A stretch of DNA of 11,176 bases from a virus. The position numbers were made by a program, and so were the translations under genes. Location: UHGV virus genome UHGV-1790366; one strand, given 5' to 3'. The first letter of the stretch is position 1, and every line of letters begins with the position of its first letter. The notes beneath the pieces were generated by a model. The model made no database searches. It worked only from the letters and a program-made list of their open reading frames with translations, and had not been told where the DNA came from. Shown here piece by piece: positions 1 through 5,044 of the stretch.

Positions 1-2
1 AC

Positions 3-188
3 CGGATCAACAGTCCCATTAACAGGTCAGGCGCTACCTGGGTAGAAGAAAGCGCCATTCACCAATTTTATAAAATTCTGGAAACGGTACTGATGAAGCG
101 CCGTTTTCAGTGTTTTATAACTGTTTTCACTCCCTGCGGTGTCGAGTTTTGCGGGGGTTATATTTTTCAGAATAGGAGATTATTCTGA
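3..188 (+). CDS. Possible 3' end of an upstream gene (partial, hypothetical protein); reading frame open from the window edge to TGA at 186-188
   Basis: Frame 3 has no stop from position 3 to the TGA at 186-188, and that stop overlaps the ATG at 188 (TGATG), a typical translationally coupled junction. The other two + frames have stops within the first 45 nt. No start codon is visible in the window and no motif was recognised; an open frame of this length could be chance. Confidence 0.25.
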   Translation, partial: RINSPINRSGATWVEESAIHQFYKILETVLMKRRFQCFITVFTPCGVEFCGGYIFQNRRLF

Positions 189-730
189 TGGCTAAGGCTA
201 AAGGCATTAAATTGCCTCAATTTAAGATCCCACTCTTTGAGCATACAACCGTTTTCTTTTGCCCGACCCGCGAGATGTTCTATGAATTTTGCGAAAAGGC
301 AGGAATTCCGATTGAACCTGATTTCGAGTTGGCTGGAGGATTAACGCTTACTTGCACTGGCGAGAATGGTGGTAACTTCTACGTGATCGCAGTATTCAAC
401 AATGAGTTGGGAACGCTGGTCCATGAATGCGCCCACACTACATTCCACGTTTTAAGTGATGTAGGCGTCGTGGCTACCACGGATCCTACCCATCCGGCGA
501 ATGAGACTTACGCTTACATGGTAGGCCGTATCTTCGATGCGTTTTTCCCTATCCTAGCAGAATCAAACGAAGCACAGGTTGCAGCAATGCAGGCGGCAGA
601 AGTCGTCGATCAGGCGCTGGAACAGGCAGAACAGCCGAAGGAAGAAGAAAAGCCAGCAAAGAAAGGCAAACGTAAGCCTAAAGCAAAAGAAGCGTATGTG
701 CCGCGTGTTATGAGCTTTAAACGGGGCTGA
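188..730 (+). CDS. Hypothetical protein with an HExxH motif (HECAH) and a lysine/glutamate-rich basic C-terminal tail
   Basis: 180-codon ORF with ATG at 188 preceded by AGGAG (174-178, 9-nt spacer). The translation contains LVHECAHTTFH (HExxH with an extra His 4 residues downstream) and ends in EQPKEEEKPAKKGKRKPKAKE. Function is not assignable from sequence alone. Confidence 0.7.
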   Translation: MAKAKGIKLPQFKIPLFEHTTVFFCPTREMFYEFCEKAGIPIEPDFELAGGLTLTCTGENGGNFYVIAVFNNELGTLVHECAHTTFHVLSDVGVVATTDPTHPANETYAYMVGRIFDAFFPILAESNEAQVAAMQAAEVVDQALEQAEQPKEEEKPAKKGKRKPKAKEAYVPRVMSFKRG

Positions 731-732
731 TT

Positions 733-801
733 ATGGTTACTTTTCTGTTGGGTTTATTTATCGGAATGGCTGCCGCTGTAATATTACTGGTCGGTGAATA
801 A
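733..801 (+). CDS. Miniprotein 1 (22 aa, MVTFLLGLFIGMAAAVILLVGE), predicted single transmembrane helix
   Basis: ATG at 733 lies 2 nt after the stop of the upstream gene, with GGGG at 723-726. About 20 consecutive hydrophobic residues. First member of a same-strand array of tiny hydrophobic ORFs. Confidence 0.45.
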   Translation: MVTFLLGLFIGMAAAVILLVGE

Positions 802-805
802 TGTT

Positions 806-901
806 ATGGACGATTATATCATCGCCGGATTAATCGGCGTTTCTGTATTTCTGGTAGGTTTTATTATAGCCGTACTGATAACCGTAATGAGCAAGTATTA
901 G
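806..901 (+). CDS. Miniprotein 2 (31 aa, MDDYIIAGLIGVSVFLVGFIIAVLITVMSKY), predicted single transmembrane helix
   Basis: ATG at 806 with GGTGA at 793-797 (8-nt spacer). Acidic N-terminus, about 25-residue hydrophobic core, polar C-terminus SKY. Confidence 0.5.
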   Translation: MDDYIIAGLIGVSVFLVGFIIAVLITVMSKY

Positions 902-914
902 GTGGGGTGGCAAG

Positions 915-989
915 ATGATTGACCCGCTAATTATCCTTTCTGCCTGCGTCGCTGTATGGCTGGCGATAATGATATTCATTGAAAGCTGA
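915..989 (+). CDS. Miniprotein 3 (24 aa, MIDPLIILSACVAVWLAIMIFIES), predicted single transmembrane helix
   Basis: ATG at 915 preceded by the G-rich SD-like GGTGGGGTGG (901-910). Hydrophobic core of about 19 residues. Confidence 0.5.
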   Translation: MIDPLIILSACVAVWLAIMIFIES

Positions 990-1000
990 AGGTATCCACA

Positions 1001-1081
1001 ATGAACGCATACGAAATGCTATTGCTGGTGGCTGTTATTACAGTCATTGCCGTAGATGTTTATCGGGAGTTTAAAAAATGA
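1001..1081 (+). CDS. Miniprotein 4 (26 aa, MNAYEMLLLVAVITVIAVDVYREFKK), hydrophobic core with basic C-terminus
   Basis: ATG at 1001 with GAAGGT at 988-993 (7-nt spacer). Its TGA stop at 1079-1081 overlaps the ATG of the next miniORF (ATGA). Confidence 0.5.
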   Translation: MNAYEMLLLVAVITVIAVDVYREFKK

Positions 1082-1146
1082 AATGGCTTGATTTCCTTTT
1101 CCTGATCGTTGCGATTGTTCTTACCATGACCGCGTTAACTCAATAG
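1078..1146 (+). CDS. Miniprotein 5 (22 aa, MKWLDFLFLIVAIVLTMTALTQ), predicted single transmembrane helix
   Basis: ATG at 1078 overlaps the stop of miniprotein 4; GGGAG at 1065-1069 (8-nt spacer). Hydrophobic core of about 19 residues. Confidence 0.5.
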   Translation: MKWLDFLFLIVAIVLTMTALTQ

Positions 1147-1154
1147 GTGAACGC

Positions 1155-1229
1155 ATGAATGCTATTGATATTATGTTGATCGTGTGTACCTTTGCGTTAA
1201 TTATTATTGGGGTGATTATCAACGTCTGA
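1155..1229 (+). CDS. Miniprotein 6 (24 aa, MNAIDIMLIVCTFALIIIGVIINV), predicted single transmembrane helix
   Basis: ATG at 1155 with AGGTGA at 1145-1150 (4-nt spacer). Same N-polar/hydrophobic-core layout as miniproteins 3 and 4. Confidence 0.5.
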   Translation: MNAIDIMLIVCTFALIIIGVIINV

Positions 1230-1245
1230 CAGTGACTTCTTAATT

Positions 1246-1290
1246 ATGGCTATATGCACGTTGTTAGTCGTTATCGTTTTCTTCGCATAA
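1246..1290 (+). CDS. Miniprotein 7 (14 aa, MAICTLLVVIVFFA), very short hydrophobic peptide; weakest member
   Basis: ATG at 1246 with no convincing SD. Only 14 codons, though entirely hydrophobic and in the gap between miniORFs 6 and 8. It may be a non-coding spacer. Confidence 0.25.
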   Translation: MAICTLLVVIVFFA

Positions 1291-1299
1291 AGGTAAACA

Positions 1300-1383
1300 A
1301 TGAAAGAGCTATTCGACTGGTTGGAAGTATTAACATACTGCGCAAGTTTTGTGGCTTGCGTATATATCATCAATAAATATTAA
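1300..1383 (+). CDS. Miniprotein 8 (27 aa, MKELFDWLEVLTYCASFVACVYIINKY), hydrophobic/amphipathic
   Basis: ATG at 1300 with AGGT at 1291-1294 (5-nt spacer). Hydrophobic core contains two Cys; polar C-terminus NKY. Confidence 0.45.
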   Translation: MKELFDWLEVLTYCASFVACVYIINKY

Positions 1384-1392
1384 AGGGGTGAC

Positions 1393-1539
1393 ATGGTGAG
1401 CAATGAAGAACTAAAAATGGCTGATGAAATCAGAAAGGCACTTGACGCGGCAGAAAACAATGAAACCGTCTACTTTTCCGAACGGGAAGTAGAAAAGATG
1501 ATGGATGAATTTAAATTAAAATTTGAAAAAGATAATTGA
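1393..1539 (+). CDS. Small acidic hydrophilic protein (48 aa, MVSNEELKMADEIRKALDAAENNETVYFSEREVEKMMDEFKLKFEKDN), function unknown
   Basis: ATG at 1393 preceded by AGGGG (1384-1388). The ORF ends 10 nt before the terminase small subunit start. Charged composition looks helical. Below the length cutoff of the ORF track. Confidence 0.45.
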   Translation: MVSNEELKMADEIRKALDAAENNETVYFSEREVEKMMDEFKLKFEKDN

Positions 1540-1549
1540 GAGGTGAAAT

Positions 1550-2035
1550 ATGGCCCGCACTAAAAAGGCAAATGCTGACGATAAAAAGCCAGCAGCTAGA
1601 AAGGTGGGCCGTCCGCATGGTTATACCGAAGAAAAGGCATTAGAGATCTGTGAACTGGTGGCGGACGGTCATAGCGTTAATAAAATTTCGAAGATGCCAG
1701 GTATGCCAACACGTTCAACAATCCTTAAGTGGTTCCGTGATGTGCCGGAATTTTCGGACATGTATGTGAGAGCGAAGGAAATAGGTTTTGAGGTATTAGC
1801 TGATGAGATCATCGATATAGCTGATGCGGCGGAGAACATTGATAAAGATGAATTACGCCGCCACCAACTAATGATTGAAACGCGTAAATGGTTACTGGCA
1901 AAACTGCAACCGCGTAAATACGGTGAACGCGTCACACAGGAGATCGTCGGCAACAGGGAGGAAGCGCCCGTACAGGTAGAAGTCACAAAAGAAGAGATCG
2001 CCCGCATCGTCCAGGAAGTAGAAGACGAGGTGTGA
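1550..2035 (+). CDS. Terminase small subunit (DNA-packaging protein), putative
   Basis: 161-aa ORF with ATG at 1550 and AGGTGA at 1541-1546. Basic N-terminus with a likely helix-turn-helix region (GRPHGYTEEKALEICELVADGHSVNKISKM). Sits immediately upstream of, and 4 nt overlapping, the large terminase gene, the canonical position. Confidence 0.65.
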   Translation: MARTKKANADDKKPAARKVGRPHGYTEEKALEICELVADGHSVNKISKMPGMPTRSTILKWFRDVPEFSDMYVRAKEIGFEVLADEIIDIADAAENIDKDELRRHQLMIETRKWLLAKLQPRKYGERVTQEIVGNREEAPVQVEVTKEEIARIVQEVEDEV

Positions 2036-2037
2036 TT

Positions 2038-3516
2038 ATGTTGACAATCAAAGAACGAGTTATTCAGTCCAAATGTGAAAACGACGGCCTGTTTTTCAAT
2101 CGCTATTTCTACAAGCAAGCGAACGGAACGAAGATGTTAATCTCAGGCCATCATTTAGCCATCCGTGATGCACTGCAACGCGTTATTAATGGTGAGATAA
2201 CCCGACTCATCATTAACATTCCTCCAGGGTACGGTAAAACCATGATCGCAACCATCAATATGATGGCGCGGTCCCTCGCAATAAATCCCCGCACACGCTT
2301 CCTTCACGTTTCCTATTCCAACAACCTGGCATTACTCAATTCCTCTACTGTAAGAAACATGATCTGTACGCCTGACTATCAGGCAATGTGGCCCATGAAG
2401 ATCCGCAACGATGCAAACTCAAAATCGATGTGGTGGACCGAATACGGTGGCGGCGTGTATGCGACGTCATCACTTGGTCAGGTGACTGGGTTCCGTGCGG
2501 GGTACATGGAATCAGGATTTAACGGCGCGTTAATCATAGACGACCCATTAAAACCCGCTGACGCTTACTCCGACGTGGTGAGAAAGCAGGTAAACACCAA
2601 CTATAACGATACGCTTGCTTCACGTCTGGCAGTGCAAACAACGCCTGTTATCGTCATCATGCAGCGCATCCACTATGATGATTTGTCCGGCTACCTGCTA
2701 CGCGGTGGCAGTGGCGAGAAGTGGCATCACCTTAACCTGCCAGTGAAGATAGACAATAGCCTGGGCTACTGGGATCTGTACCCTGAAAACGAGTTCGCTA
2801 TCCCTATTCCTCACAACCTGCCAGATGGCTGGCTATGGCCTAAAAAGCACAATGATATCCATGAAGCTGGACTGAAAGCACACAGACGGTCATTTGAAGC
2901 CCAGTACATGCAGCGCCCGCGTAAATTCGACGAAGAGGGTGCGTTATGGACTGAAGCGATGATAACCGCCGCGCACCGGATGCAGATAACGCAGGACAAG
3001 ATCCGCACCGTGATAGCTATTGACCCGGCGACAACATCATCTGATGAATCTGACGAAACCGGGATTGTGGCGTGTTCCGCTTATGGTGGCGGTAAGAATG
3101 CTCAGTATTCTGTTGATGGTGACTATTCGGGCCGCATGTCGCCTAACGACTGGGCGCACGCATCAATGAAAGCATATGACATCCATGAAGCTGACGCGAT
3201 AGTTATCGAAACCAACCAGGGCGGGGAAATGGCAGAGGCCACGTTGCGTAATGCCGGATTCAAAGGCCGCATTGTTAAGGTGCACGCAAGCAAAGGTAAA
3301 TTCGCCCGCGCCGAGCCAATATCAGCACTGTATGCACAAGGAAGGGTGGCCCACACAGGCAGCCTGTACACGCTGGAAAATCAAATGATGGAATACGTGC
3401 CAGCTACCGCCAAAAAATCCCCTGACCGTATGGATGCGATGGTATGGGGGATCACTGAATTAAGCCAACCACAGGCGATGGGTCTTATGTTACCTAAACG
3501 CCTGCGCGGATTTTAA
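2038..3516 (+). CDS. Terminase large subunit (ATPase plus nuclease)
   Basis: Walker A-like IPPGYGKT and Walker B-like ALIIDDP in the N-terminal half; C-terminal acidic nuclease-like motifs (VIAIDPATT, DAIVIETNQGGE). Start moved to ATG 2038 (GAGGTG SD at 2027-2032, 5-nt spacer) from the ORF-track GTG at 2032. Followed by the portal gene. Confidence 0.88.
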   Translation: MLTIKERVIQSKCENDGLFFNRYFYKQANGTKMLISGHHLAIRDALQRVINGEITRLIINIPPGYGKTMIATINMMARSLAINPRTRFLHVSYSNNLALLNSSTVRNMICTPDYQAMWPMKIRNDANSKSMWWTEYGGGVYATSSLGQVTGFRAGYMESGFNGALIIDDPLKPADAYSDVVRKQVNTNYNDTLASRLAVQTTPVIVIMQRIHYDDLSGYLLRGGSGEKWHHLNLPVKIDNSLGYWDLYPENEFAIPIPHNLPDGWLWPKKHNDIHEAGLKAHRRSFEAQYMQRPRKFDEEGALWTEAMITAAHRMQITQDKIRTVIAIDPATTSSDESDETGIVACSAYGGGKNAQYSVDGDYSGRMSPNDWAHASMKAYDIHEADAIVIETNQGGEMAEATLRNAGFKGRIVKVHASKGKFARAEPISALYAQGRVAHTGSLYTLENQMMEYVPATAKKSPDRMDAMVWGITELSQPQAMGLMLPKRLRGF

Positions 3517-3553: not shown

Positions 3554-3664
3554 ATGAACAAGAATAATTCTCAATTGGCTACATAAAATCTGTCTCACAA
3601 TCCCCCACAAGTTTTTCTATTTTTCGCGTAGCAACGCGTAAACATGTATTCAGGAGTAAATATT

Positions 3665-5044
3665 ATGCCATCCAATTTAGAATTGGCGGTTAATGCTGCC
3701 TTGTCACAACGCCAGGCGGCCTTTGCCCGCTATGCAGCCGCTAACCCATTCTCAATGGGTATTGATGCAAAACGTGATGCTGCGTGGAGTGAATACGGAT
3801 TCAAAGAAGAAATCACCTATGCCGATTTATACAAACTGTATCGTCGCGGTGGTATCGCTCACGGTGCTATTGAGAAGATCATTACTACGTGCTGGCGCAC
3901 CAGGCCAACGCTGATTGAAGGTACGGAAGACGAGAAAGCGAAAAAGGAAACTTCGTGGGAAAGAGAAATCAAAAAACGATTCGACAATAGATTCTGGCGC
4001 GTAATTGCTGAATGCGATCGCCGCCGCCTCATCGGTCGTTATGCTGGACTGTTAATTCACGTCAGGGATAACAAGCCGTGGGATCAGCCAGTAACAAAAG
4101 GCGTAGGCATTGCCAAATTTACCCCCGTATGGGCTGGTGCTCTTACACCGAAGGACTTCGAAGAAAACCCGGATAAAGAAAACTATGGCCTGCCTACATG
4201 GTGGGAATACAAGGAGCGCATTAACAGTAAGACCATAGCAAGAAAGATACATCCAGATCGCATATTTATCTTCGGTGATTATTCTGATGATGCCATCGCT
4301 TTCCTTGAACCGTCCTATAACGCATTCGTTTCGCTGGAGAAAGTGGAAGGCGGCAGCGGTGAATCATTCCTGAAAAACGCAGCACGTCAACTGGCTATCT
4401 CGTTCGATAAAGAAATTGATTTCCGTTCTCTGGCTGCAACATACGGTTGCGACGTTACAGAGCTACGCGAAAAATTCAATGAAGCGGCAGAGGATATAAA
4501 TAAAGGTAATGATGTGATGATGGCATTACAGGGAGCTACCGTTAGCCCGCTGGTTACTGCCGTAGCAGATCCTTCCGCTACCTATGACGTCAACCTGCAA
4601 ACCGCAGCCGCTGGTATCGATATTCCAACGCGTATCCTGGTTGGGAATCAGCAGGGCGAACGCGCATCAACCGAAGACCTCCGCTACTTCAATAACCGCT
4701 GCATGACCCGCCGTGAGGAAATAGGAGGTGAGCTTGAGGAGCTATTCCGCAAGATGGCAGATCTCCGCCTTATCAGTATGCCAGTCGATGTATCAGTTTT
4801 ATGGGATGACCTTAACGCCATGACAAAAGCCGAACTACTGGAAGCGGCACACAAGATGGCGCAAATCAATCAGGCATGTCTCGCTACTGGTGAGGAAATA
4901 TTTAGCGGCGATGAGATCCGCGAAGCTGCCGGATATGAAGGGCCAACGCAGGAAGTAGAAGTGGAAGACGAGGACGATAAAGATGAAGATGAAAGTAAAG
5001 AGAATAATCAAAAAGATTCCGCCGTCCGCGATAATGCCATCTAA
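3665..5044 (+). CDS. Portal protein
   Basis: About 459 aa, directly downstream of the large terminase, with a strongly acidic C-terminal tail (EVEVEDEDDKDEDESKENNQKD). Start set to ATG 3665 (AGGAG at 3653-3657, 7-nt spacer) rather than the upstream in-frame ATG 3644, which lacks an SD. Confidence 0.8.
   Translation: MPSNLELAVNAALSQRQAAFARYAAANPFSMGIDAKRDAAWSEYGFKEEITYADLYKLYRRGGIAHGAIEKIITTCWRTRPTLIEGTEDEKAKKETSWEREIKKRFDNRFWRVIAECDRRRLIGRYAGLLIHVRDNKPWDQPVTKGVGIAKFTPVWAGALTPKDFEENPDKENYGLPTWWEYKERINSKTIARKIHPDRIFIFGDYSDDAIAFLEPSYNAFVSLEKVEGGSGESFLKNAARQLAISFDKEIDFRSLAATYGCDVTELREKFNEAAEDINKGNDVMMALQGATVSPLVTAVADPSATYDVNLQTAAAGIDIPTRILVGNQQGERASTEDLRYFNNRCMTRREEIGGELEELFRKMADLRLISMPVDVSVLWDDLNAMTKAELLEAAHKMAQINQACLATGEEIFSGDEIREAAGYEGPTQEVEVEDEDDKDEDESKENNQKDSAVRDNAI

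Follow-up and report, generated by a model that had tools for sequence, protein, structure and literature searches.

The 180-amino acid (aa) protein encoded at positions 188-730 of UHGV virus genome UHGV-1790366, in the stretch of 11,176 nucleotides (nt) analysed here (hereafter the window), is best explained, with a probability of roughly 0.55, as a minimal gluzincin-type metallopeptidase domain joined by a spacer to a tethering tail, which would act in counter-defence or host takeover. The window covers part of the late genes of a temperate Escherichia coli phage or prophage of mEp021-like type (mEpimmI group), and its DNA is 87-91% identical to that of MagusPhagus, mEp010, mEp554, mEp044, mEp013, mEp021 and mEp515. 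An earlier sequence-only reading of the window had pointed to the open reading frame (ORF), its HExxH motif, its basic tail and a gap of 2 nt to the next ORF, all of which are borne out by direct inspection of the sequence (the stop codon TGA occupies 728-730 and the next ATG begins at 733). The gene and its parts can be laid out as follows:

174-178, plus strand: Shine-Dalgarno sequence AGGAG, 9 nt 5' of the ATG, read directly and kept in relatives
188-730, plus strand: coding sequence (CDS) of 180 aa with an ATG start, ortholog of mEp021 gp49 and member of PHROG 1365
188-562, plus strand: predicted minimal zincin (gluzincin-type) domain, residues 1-125, from the AlphaFold2 model and the PHROG 1365 match
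422-436, plus strand: HECAH on the active-site helix, with H79 and H83 as predicted metal ligands and E80 as the predicted catalytic base
500-517, plus strand: NETYAY (N105-Y110), with E106 the predicted third metal ligand on the 'glutamate helix' and Y110 nearly invariant
563-637, plus strand: acidic Ala/Glu/Gln-rich helical spacer, residues 126-150, variable in length
638-727, plus strand: disordered Lys/Arg-rich tail ending in VPRVMSFKRG, with a predicted local confidence (pLDDT) below 50 for residues 150-180

An HExxH motif taken alone is weak evidence for a metallopeptidase because it also arises in 1.1% of shuffles of the 180-aa protein, and the sequence-only reading had kept open the option that it is coincidental. 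The supposition of a chance motif in a protein of unrelated function, which could also draw on the fact that no curated family matches the query, is however contradicted by the pattern of conservation across distant relatives. In a set of 147 distant representatives, 144 keep the HExxH; of the three that do not, P0187 (70 aa) is a fragment that stops short of the motif. Further, only four columns are invariant in an alignment of 133 sequences sharing 20-63% identity with the query, namely H79, E80, H83 and E106, with G51, G93 and Y110 each conserved in more than 90% of the sequences; counted individually, E80 is found in 147/148, E106 in 146/148, Y110 in 143/148 and N105 in 96/148. This invariance of the H, E, H and downstream E down to 20% identity, along with the location of the HExxH on the predicted active-site helix of a zincin-like fold, leaves the coincidental option with virtually no probability, and the motif can be regarded as confirmed not to be a product of chance.

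The same comparison also allows the metal ligands to be assigned. The sequence-only reading had noted a further His four residues downstream of the HExxH (LVHECAHTTFH, in which HECAH represents residues 79-83); this residue, H87, is present in the query, but the equivalent position is occupied by F, Y or D in most family members. Since it is not conserved, H87 is not a metal ligand, and the conserved ligand position is E106 rather than the third His of an HExxHxxxH pattern. Of 142 scored members, 127 place this Glu 19-20 residues after the second His; the query, owing to a short insertion, has a distance of 23. In the query the Glu is embedded in the context E-T-Y-A, with E-x-F-C being the form in the majority of the family. 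The E-T-Y-A version fits the gluzincin Glu-helix motif (E,H)xx(A,F,T,S,G) (PMC7213743), and an arrangement of a two-His helix with a Glu-helix has been described for the zincins of mobile elements (PMC5512222).

Structure prediction with AlphaFold2 on the 133-sequence alignment yielded a confident model (pLDDT 94.9, predicted TM score (pTM) 0.89), with strands at residues 11-13, 21-25, 51-57 and 63-69 and helices at 28-38, 74-91 and 103-130. The HExxH lies inside the predicted helix 74-91 and E106 in the first turn of helix 103-130, such that the order of elements, i.e., a β-sheet and an N-terminal helix (28-38) and then the two catalytic helices, corresponds to the zincin core (PMC5512222). 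The only named structural matches in BFVD are SprT-like. A weak ungapped HMMER alignment places H79, E80, H83 and E106 onto H142, E143, H146 and E166 of thermolysin. In thermolysin-type gluzincins (MEROPS clan MA(E)), an N-E-A/T on the next helix comes about 20 residues after the HExxH, as is seen here, and the archaeal 'minigluzincins', which are about 100 aa long, come close in size to the PHROG 1365 core. On the basis of the sequence motifs and the model, we place the protein in the zincin/gluzincin superfamily (clan MA), with the gluzincin pattern. The invariant HExxH and downstream Glu, together with the confident prediction of a minimal zincin, thus lend support to the earlier idea of a small zincin-type, metallopeptidase-like protein.

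In such a structure, the metal would be coordinated by H79 and H83 from the active-site helix together with E106 from the first turn of the following helix, a water molecule would be activated by E80, and the nearly invariant Y110 would probably help to stabilise the substrate or the reaction intermediate. Conservation and model together make it highly probable that the protein is a catalytically competent metallopeptidase. An alternative would see it as a metal-binding adaptor or pseudo-protease, in which the zincin fold merely provides the scaffold for an inhibitor, a decoy or a nucleic-acid-binding factor. In line with this, the protein is small and its model shows no evident substrate-binding subdomains. 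Additionally, experience with ArdC weighs against our interpretation: its E229A mutant still supported conjugation, and a conserved protease site need therefore not explain a known phenotype (PMC7213743). However, conservation of the catalytic base E80 matches that of the metal ligands, whereas a scaffold usually loses the base first. For this reason an enzyme is favoured over a scaffold, and we consider the adaptor improbable.

The family to which the protein belongs is widespread. The query matches PHROG 1365 with E = 2.2e-31 (residues 1-131 against profile positions 3-124 of 127), a profile which is annotated as having no known function and which also matches 132 of the 133 aligned relatives. 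An exhaustive HMMER search of 1.84 billion representative proteins recovered 270 clusters at E <= 1e-3, nearly all of them standalone proteins of 100-200 aa that match query residues 1-126 only; the 150 listed representatives are all 67-201 aa long and show a single matched stretch. Among close relatives, with 77-99% identity, there are more than 120 clusters, almost all of which stem from E. coli (prophages) and every one of which is named 'hypothetical', and an ortholog is present in all seven sequenced mEp021-group phages that were found. Named members include mEp021 gp49, ST64T/L Orf129, ST104 ORF47, epsilon34 gp70 and hkcC of HK620 and P22. They are 37-96% identical, share the HExxH and NExxxY motifs and the size of the core domain, and are all transcribed in the direction of the late operon, but neither the spacer nor the basic tail of the query exists in the P22-type members (about 120-129 aa).

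In the literature hkcC appears without an assigned function, as part of the P22 'ant moron' (PMC2629481, PMC4837284). P22 itself contains an intact 125-aa hkcC homolog (locus L003, 2489-2866, plus strand; approximately 13849-14226 of BK000583) with the motifs HECAH and NETYCY. This ORF is unannotated in BK000583 and called hypothetical in other P22-like records, and it overlaps the annotated sieA promoter feature. Phages ST160, Phi75, UAB_Phi20 and SE1 each display two matching places; for UAB_Phi20 at least, these comprise one Orf129-type copy and one hkcC-type copy in the ant moron (gene table, PMC4837284).

Against the Pfam, NCBIfam and PADLOC models the query gave no qualifying match. The closest Pfam family by count is SprT-like (PF10263), with weak matches in 19 of the 133 members (best E = 1e-4). 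In four weak hits seen among ten members that were scanned individually, these matches amount to 12-15 bits against a cutoff of 25.6 and cover about 18 residues at profile positions 60-79 of 108. The query itself has no SprT-like hit at E <= 10, hhalign against E. coli SprT gave 5%, and neither a Cys-rich segment nor a Zn-binding subdomain is present. SprT, Spartan and Wss1 do share with the query the concept of a small zincin tethered to DNA; however, in Spartan the third ligand is a His and there is a Zn-binding subdomain (PMC7213743), whereas PHROG 1365 has a Glu and no Cys-rich module. The SprT/WLM-like identity that had been suggested for the protein is accordingly not upheld, the Pfam hits being sub-threshold and the third ligand being a Glu where Spartan has a His.

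Other zincin families fare no better. At E <= 0.1, the 133 members matched 32 Pfam families in total; MPTase-PolyVal (PF18818) is not one of the 25 that were listed (each of the seven unlisted ones was matched by at most one member), and hhalign against the ArdC protease domain returned 18.6% probability over 32 columns. The sole positive evidence for a PolyVal affiliation is the name 'PolyVal Metallopeptidase superfamily domain' carried at source by one relative (P0118). The ArdC/MPTase-PolyVal modules are fused within polyvalent proteins, whereas the present family is standalone with no ArdC-N fusion; likewise, the nucleic-acid-binding part of ArdC is a folded single-stranded DNA-binding domain, as opposed to the disordered basic tail of the query. 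There is no hit to ImmA/IrrE (Peptidase_M78, COG2856), and the neighbours are lysis and terminase genes: the ImmA/IrrE and CapP zincins differ from the family in that neither an adjacent Xre-type repressor nor a CBASS operon is found here, the context being a late operon. The peptide beta-hydroxylase family aKG-HExxH (TIGR04267) scores 11.8 bits against a cutoff of 40 (E = 0.17), over 25 residues at the motif. The protein thus sits in no curated zincin family, and we place it in a new, uncurated family within the known superfamily.

Beyond the catalytic domain, the last helix of the model continues to about residue 147 with falling confidence, thereby running through most of the acidic spacer, into which mEp021-type alleles carry a 14-residue repeat-like insertion. 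The last 33 residues of the protein (EQPKEEEKPAKKGKRKPKAKEAYVPRVMSFKRG) include 12 K/R, among them the run KKGKRKPKAK at residues 158-167 (nt 659-688). This tail is kept in the mEp021 clade and in two further relatives (P0118 and P0121), with the VPRVMSFKRG peptide conserved, and a second allele type (P0113) carries a different but equally basic tail. Among 146 diverged members, about 8 carry comparable charged tails, with KRG or RRG as the ending in several, and P0250, a close relative within the lineage of some tailed members, has none. The basic tail is for these reasons read from the sequences as an optional, lineage-specific add-on. Its composition suggests binding to a polyanion, for which DNA, by analogy with ArdC, Spartan and IrrE, is the candidate that we favour; that the tail binds nucleic acid is nevertheless a proposal we put forward at somewhat less than even odds. 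Within the CDS, an overlapping ORF of 44 aa (window 579-713, +1 frame) likewise encodes a highly basic peptide, and the database protein P0116 is a frameshift variant that enters this frame; the switch is most likely a by-product of the A/G-rich sequence coding for the tail.

The neighbouring features of the window relevant to the expression and the context of the gene are:

70-118, plus strand: conserved hairpin resembling a terminator, with a U-rich tract after it, separating the gene from the lysis cassette, which lies outside the window on its upstream side
733-1383, plus strand: eight tiny hydrophobic ORFs (14-31 aa), linked to the gene in the mEp021 clade only
1550-2035, plus strand: Sf6-type small terminase (TerS), with Pfam Sf6_terminase / Terminase_6C E = 1e-36 / 1e-13 given for the TerS-TerL pair
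2032-3516, plus strand: large terminase (TerL), a conserved downstream neighbour, the pair spanning 1550-3516

In relatives of the mEp021 group, holin, endolysin and Rz-type spanin genes lie directly upstream of the region equivalent to the window. The hairpin at 70-118 has an RNA folding energy of -21.9 kcal/mol (z = -4.9, with none of 200 shuffles equally stable), is kept in mEp021, MagusPhagus and the E. coli N25 prophage, and corresponds to the terminator TERM_6 of the mEp021 annotation. A 31-aa ORF annotated in MagusPhagus (93-188 in the window) overlaps the hairpin and is probably not a gene. A search of the plus strand for sigma-70-like promoters within window positions 1-2100 found none, and hence the 180-aa gene is most simply viewed as part of an antiterminated late transcript.

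The sequence-only reading further saw the gene as heading an operon of mini-ORFs. In the mEp021 clade the array does directly follow the gene, and translational coupling across the 2-nt gap to the first mini-ORF is possible. All but one of the mini-ORFs have a Shine-Dalgarno sequence, and an acidic ORF of 48 aa (1393-1539) comes after them. The mini-ORFs are genuine and conserved: the same mini-peptides, some identical, are encoded in mEp021 (about five, unannotated) and in MagusPhagus (about 12), with the copy number varying. However, the array is absent from the locus (L019) of the 53%-identical ortholog P0121, in which the gene instead abuts TerS, and this part of the claim therefore holds for the mEp021 clade and fails for the P0121-type relative. 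Comparison with the E. coli N25 prophage additionally reveals a mosaic joint at about 1285-1289: window positions 1-1285, with the gene and most of the array, are 86.8% identical, as against 99.4% for 1289-3516, with the end of the array and the terminase genes. This difference indicates that the gene and most of the mini-ORF segment have been exchanged independently of the terminase genes. Further downstream, the ORF at 3644-5044 encodes the portal protein (Pfam Phage_portal_3, E = 1e-17, in agreement with phage annotations). In E. coli N25 and RM9245, RefSeq/PGAP gives the orthologs of this ORF the name 'anti-CBASS protein Acb1 family protein', which looks like a naming artefact.

Across the family, the order of lysis cassette, PHROG 1365 gene and terminase is conserved and recurs in very different phages. 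In the mEp021-like relative with the P0121 ortholog, a gap of 3 nt separates the gene from an Sf6-type TerS; P22-like phages have the same order with a GP3_package TerS, and it is seen again in a lambdoid prophage and, with a Terminase_2 TerS, in a Kosakonia prophage. In the T7-like Ralstonia phage RSB3, the gene is found at the end of the genome, after those for the maturase and lysozyme. Among 75 IMG/VR loci with enough downstream sequence, 51 contain a recognisable TerL on the same strand, which starts at a median of 838 nt (403-2316) downstream; six more have a Terminase_3 TerL, and in the other 18 an unclassified ORF of 474-523 aa lies at 0.7-1.3 kb. The commonest upstream neighbour is DUF2560, and downstream it is an Orf134-like protein or a PF18894 protein. 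The latter, a 'putative phage metallopeptidase', is directly downstream in 14 of 83 loci (e.g., L033, 2045-2683, E = 1.6e-42). It resembles the present family in being a phage zincin-like protein of the same pre-terminase slot, but differs in its length of 212 aa and is not listed among the matches of the 133 members. Because these 14 members precede the unrelated PF18894, the slot upstream of the terminase genes repeatedly hosts zincin-like genes.

This position brings up a role as a packaging or morphogenesis helper, in which the enzyme, with its tail sitting on DNA, strips DNA-bound proteins from concatemers or processes a component of the virion or terminase. The placement shortly before TerS/TerL, seen with at least six terminase types, at the above-noted median distance to TerL and with the 3-nt gap to TerS in one case, the late-operon strand and the basic tail would all be consistent with such a helper. 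However, several observations speak against it. The copies of hkcC in HK620 and P22 are in the ant moron, far from the terminase (PMC2629481). One member adjoins a deoxynucleoside monophosphate (dNMP) kinase gene, and in one lineage the family member sits in a block of two ParB_N genes, an NTPase, the member itself and an unknown protein of about 300 aa, upstream of TerL. The recombination of the gene and mini-ORF segment apart from the terminase, as seen against N25, the lack of a tail in most members and the roughly 270 clusters of the family, set against the far wider spread of these terminase families, point the same way. To our knowledge, P22 packaging has also been reconstituted without such a factor. 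We hence regard a packaging helper as unlikely, and describe the family as a mobile, standalone accessory late gene rather than a fixed part of the packaging machine, in support of the earlier statement that the protein is not a standard packaging component.

The late expression and the basic tail could alternatively be those of an effector that is packaged in the virion and injected, i.e., the metallopeptidase module known from polyvalent proteins (P1 DdrB, N4 vRNAP or ArdC type) occurring on its own, which would be loaded into the head with the DNA via its tail and act against restriction or defence proteins of the host as the next infection begins. Beyond the PolyVal label of one relative, the resemblance of the tail to histone H1 tails is compatible with this, and the ParB_N genes in the same block of one lineage recall the combination of ParB and MPTase in P1 DdrB (PMC5512222). 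Yet the protein is standalone and never fused, and Pfam MPTase-PolyVal is not among the families listed for the 133 members. Moreover, gp49, annotated as 'hypothetical protein', is absent from the 16 mEp021 virion proteins identified by mass spectrometry, for which the annotation is 'virion structural protein', in a study which cut gel bands such that a low-copy protein may have escaped, and the only virion proteins described there as lying out of cluster are encoded upstream of the lysis genes (PMC11893012). An injected effector appears about as improbable as the adaptor considered above.

We prefer instead to read the protein as a cytoplasmic accessory factor of the phage that is transcribed along with the late genes and built of three parts, namely the gluzincin domain of about 125 residues, the spacer and the tail. 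We infer that it would act as an endopeptidase cutting one or a few specific proteins in the infected cell, with the basic tail of the mEp021 clade tethering the enzyme to a polyanion, most plausibly DNA, in the manner of ArdC, Spartan and IrrE. Its favoured role would be the neutralisation of a host protein, in counter-defence or host takeover, and not virion assembly. Two kinds of context bear on this. First, the gene occupies accessory slots, as set out above. Second, in two loci of the lineage with the ParB_N block, a Tad2-like gene lies directly upstream of the family member (L016, 6729-7004; L022, 5739-5999), and in another, unrelated lineage the directly upstream gene encodes a 200-aa protein with a C-terminal Sequestin domain (L008, 147-749). 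Tad2-like proteins and Sequestin are families of anti-Thoeris signal sponges, of which Sequestin has been experimentally validated. The accessory location and these three sponge-adjacent loci mildly favour counter-defence, and the context leans slightly to the anti-defence option over the processing enzyme, both of which the sequence-only reading had entertained. Taken by itself, a counter-defence role is a tentative proposal.

Extending this to the family as a whole, PHROG 1365 might represent an unrecognised and widespread group of solo 'mini-zincin' counter-defence proteases that cut a host immune or DNA-bound protein. Such an enzyme would be made late or carried into the next infection, and the tail of the mEp021 clade would make it DNA-dependent like Spartan. 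This would explain the position beside the Tad2 and Sequestin sponges and in accessory slots, and we offer it as a rather doubtful generalisation at this stage.

Proteolytic counter-defence is well known in eukaryotic viruses, and we know of few documented cases in phages. Against this background, the present analysis delineates a family of about 125 aa whose gluzincin catalytic set is intact. The phage lineages that carry it number in the hundreds and take in P22, HK620 and epsilon34 as well as the mEp021 group, which is prevalent in the gut. The family has been without a Pfam model, a name or a phenotype, and its definition gives annotators a label. Were it to prove only another accessory zincin, the gain would be better annotation. 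The substrate of so small and tractable an enzyme could, on the other hand, uncover either a new target in the host or a new step where lysis and packaging meet, and the presence of hkcC in P22 and HK620 makes the counter-defence idea directly testable in classical model phages. At present the result is an improved annotation, but it is one that is easily tested and could uncover proteolytic counter-defence.
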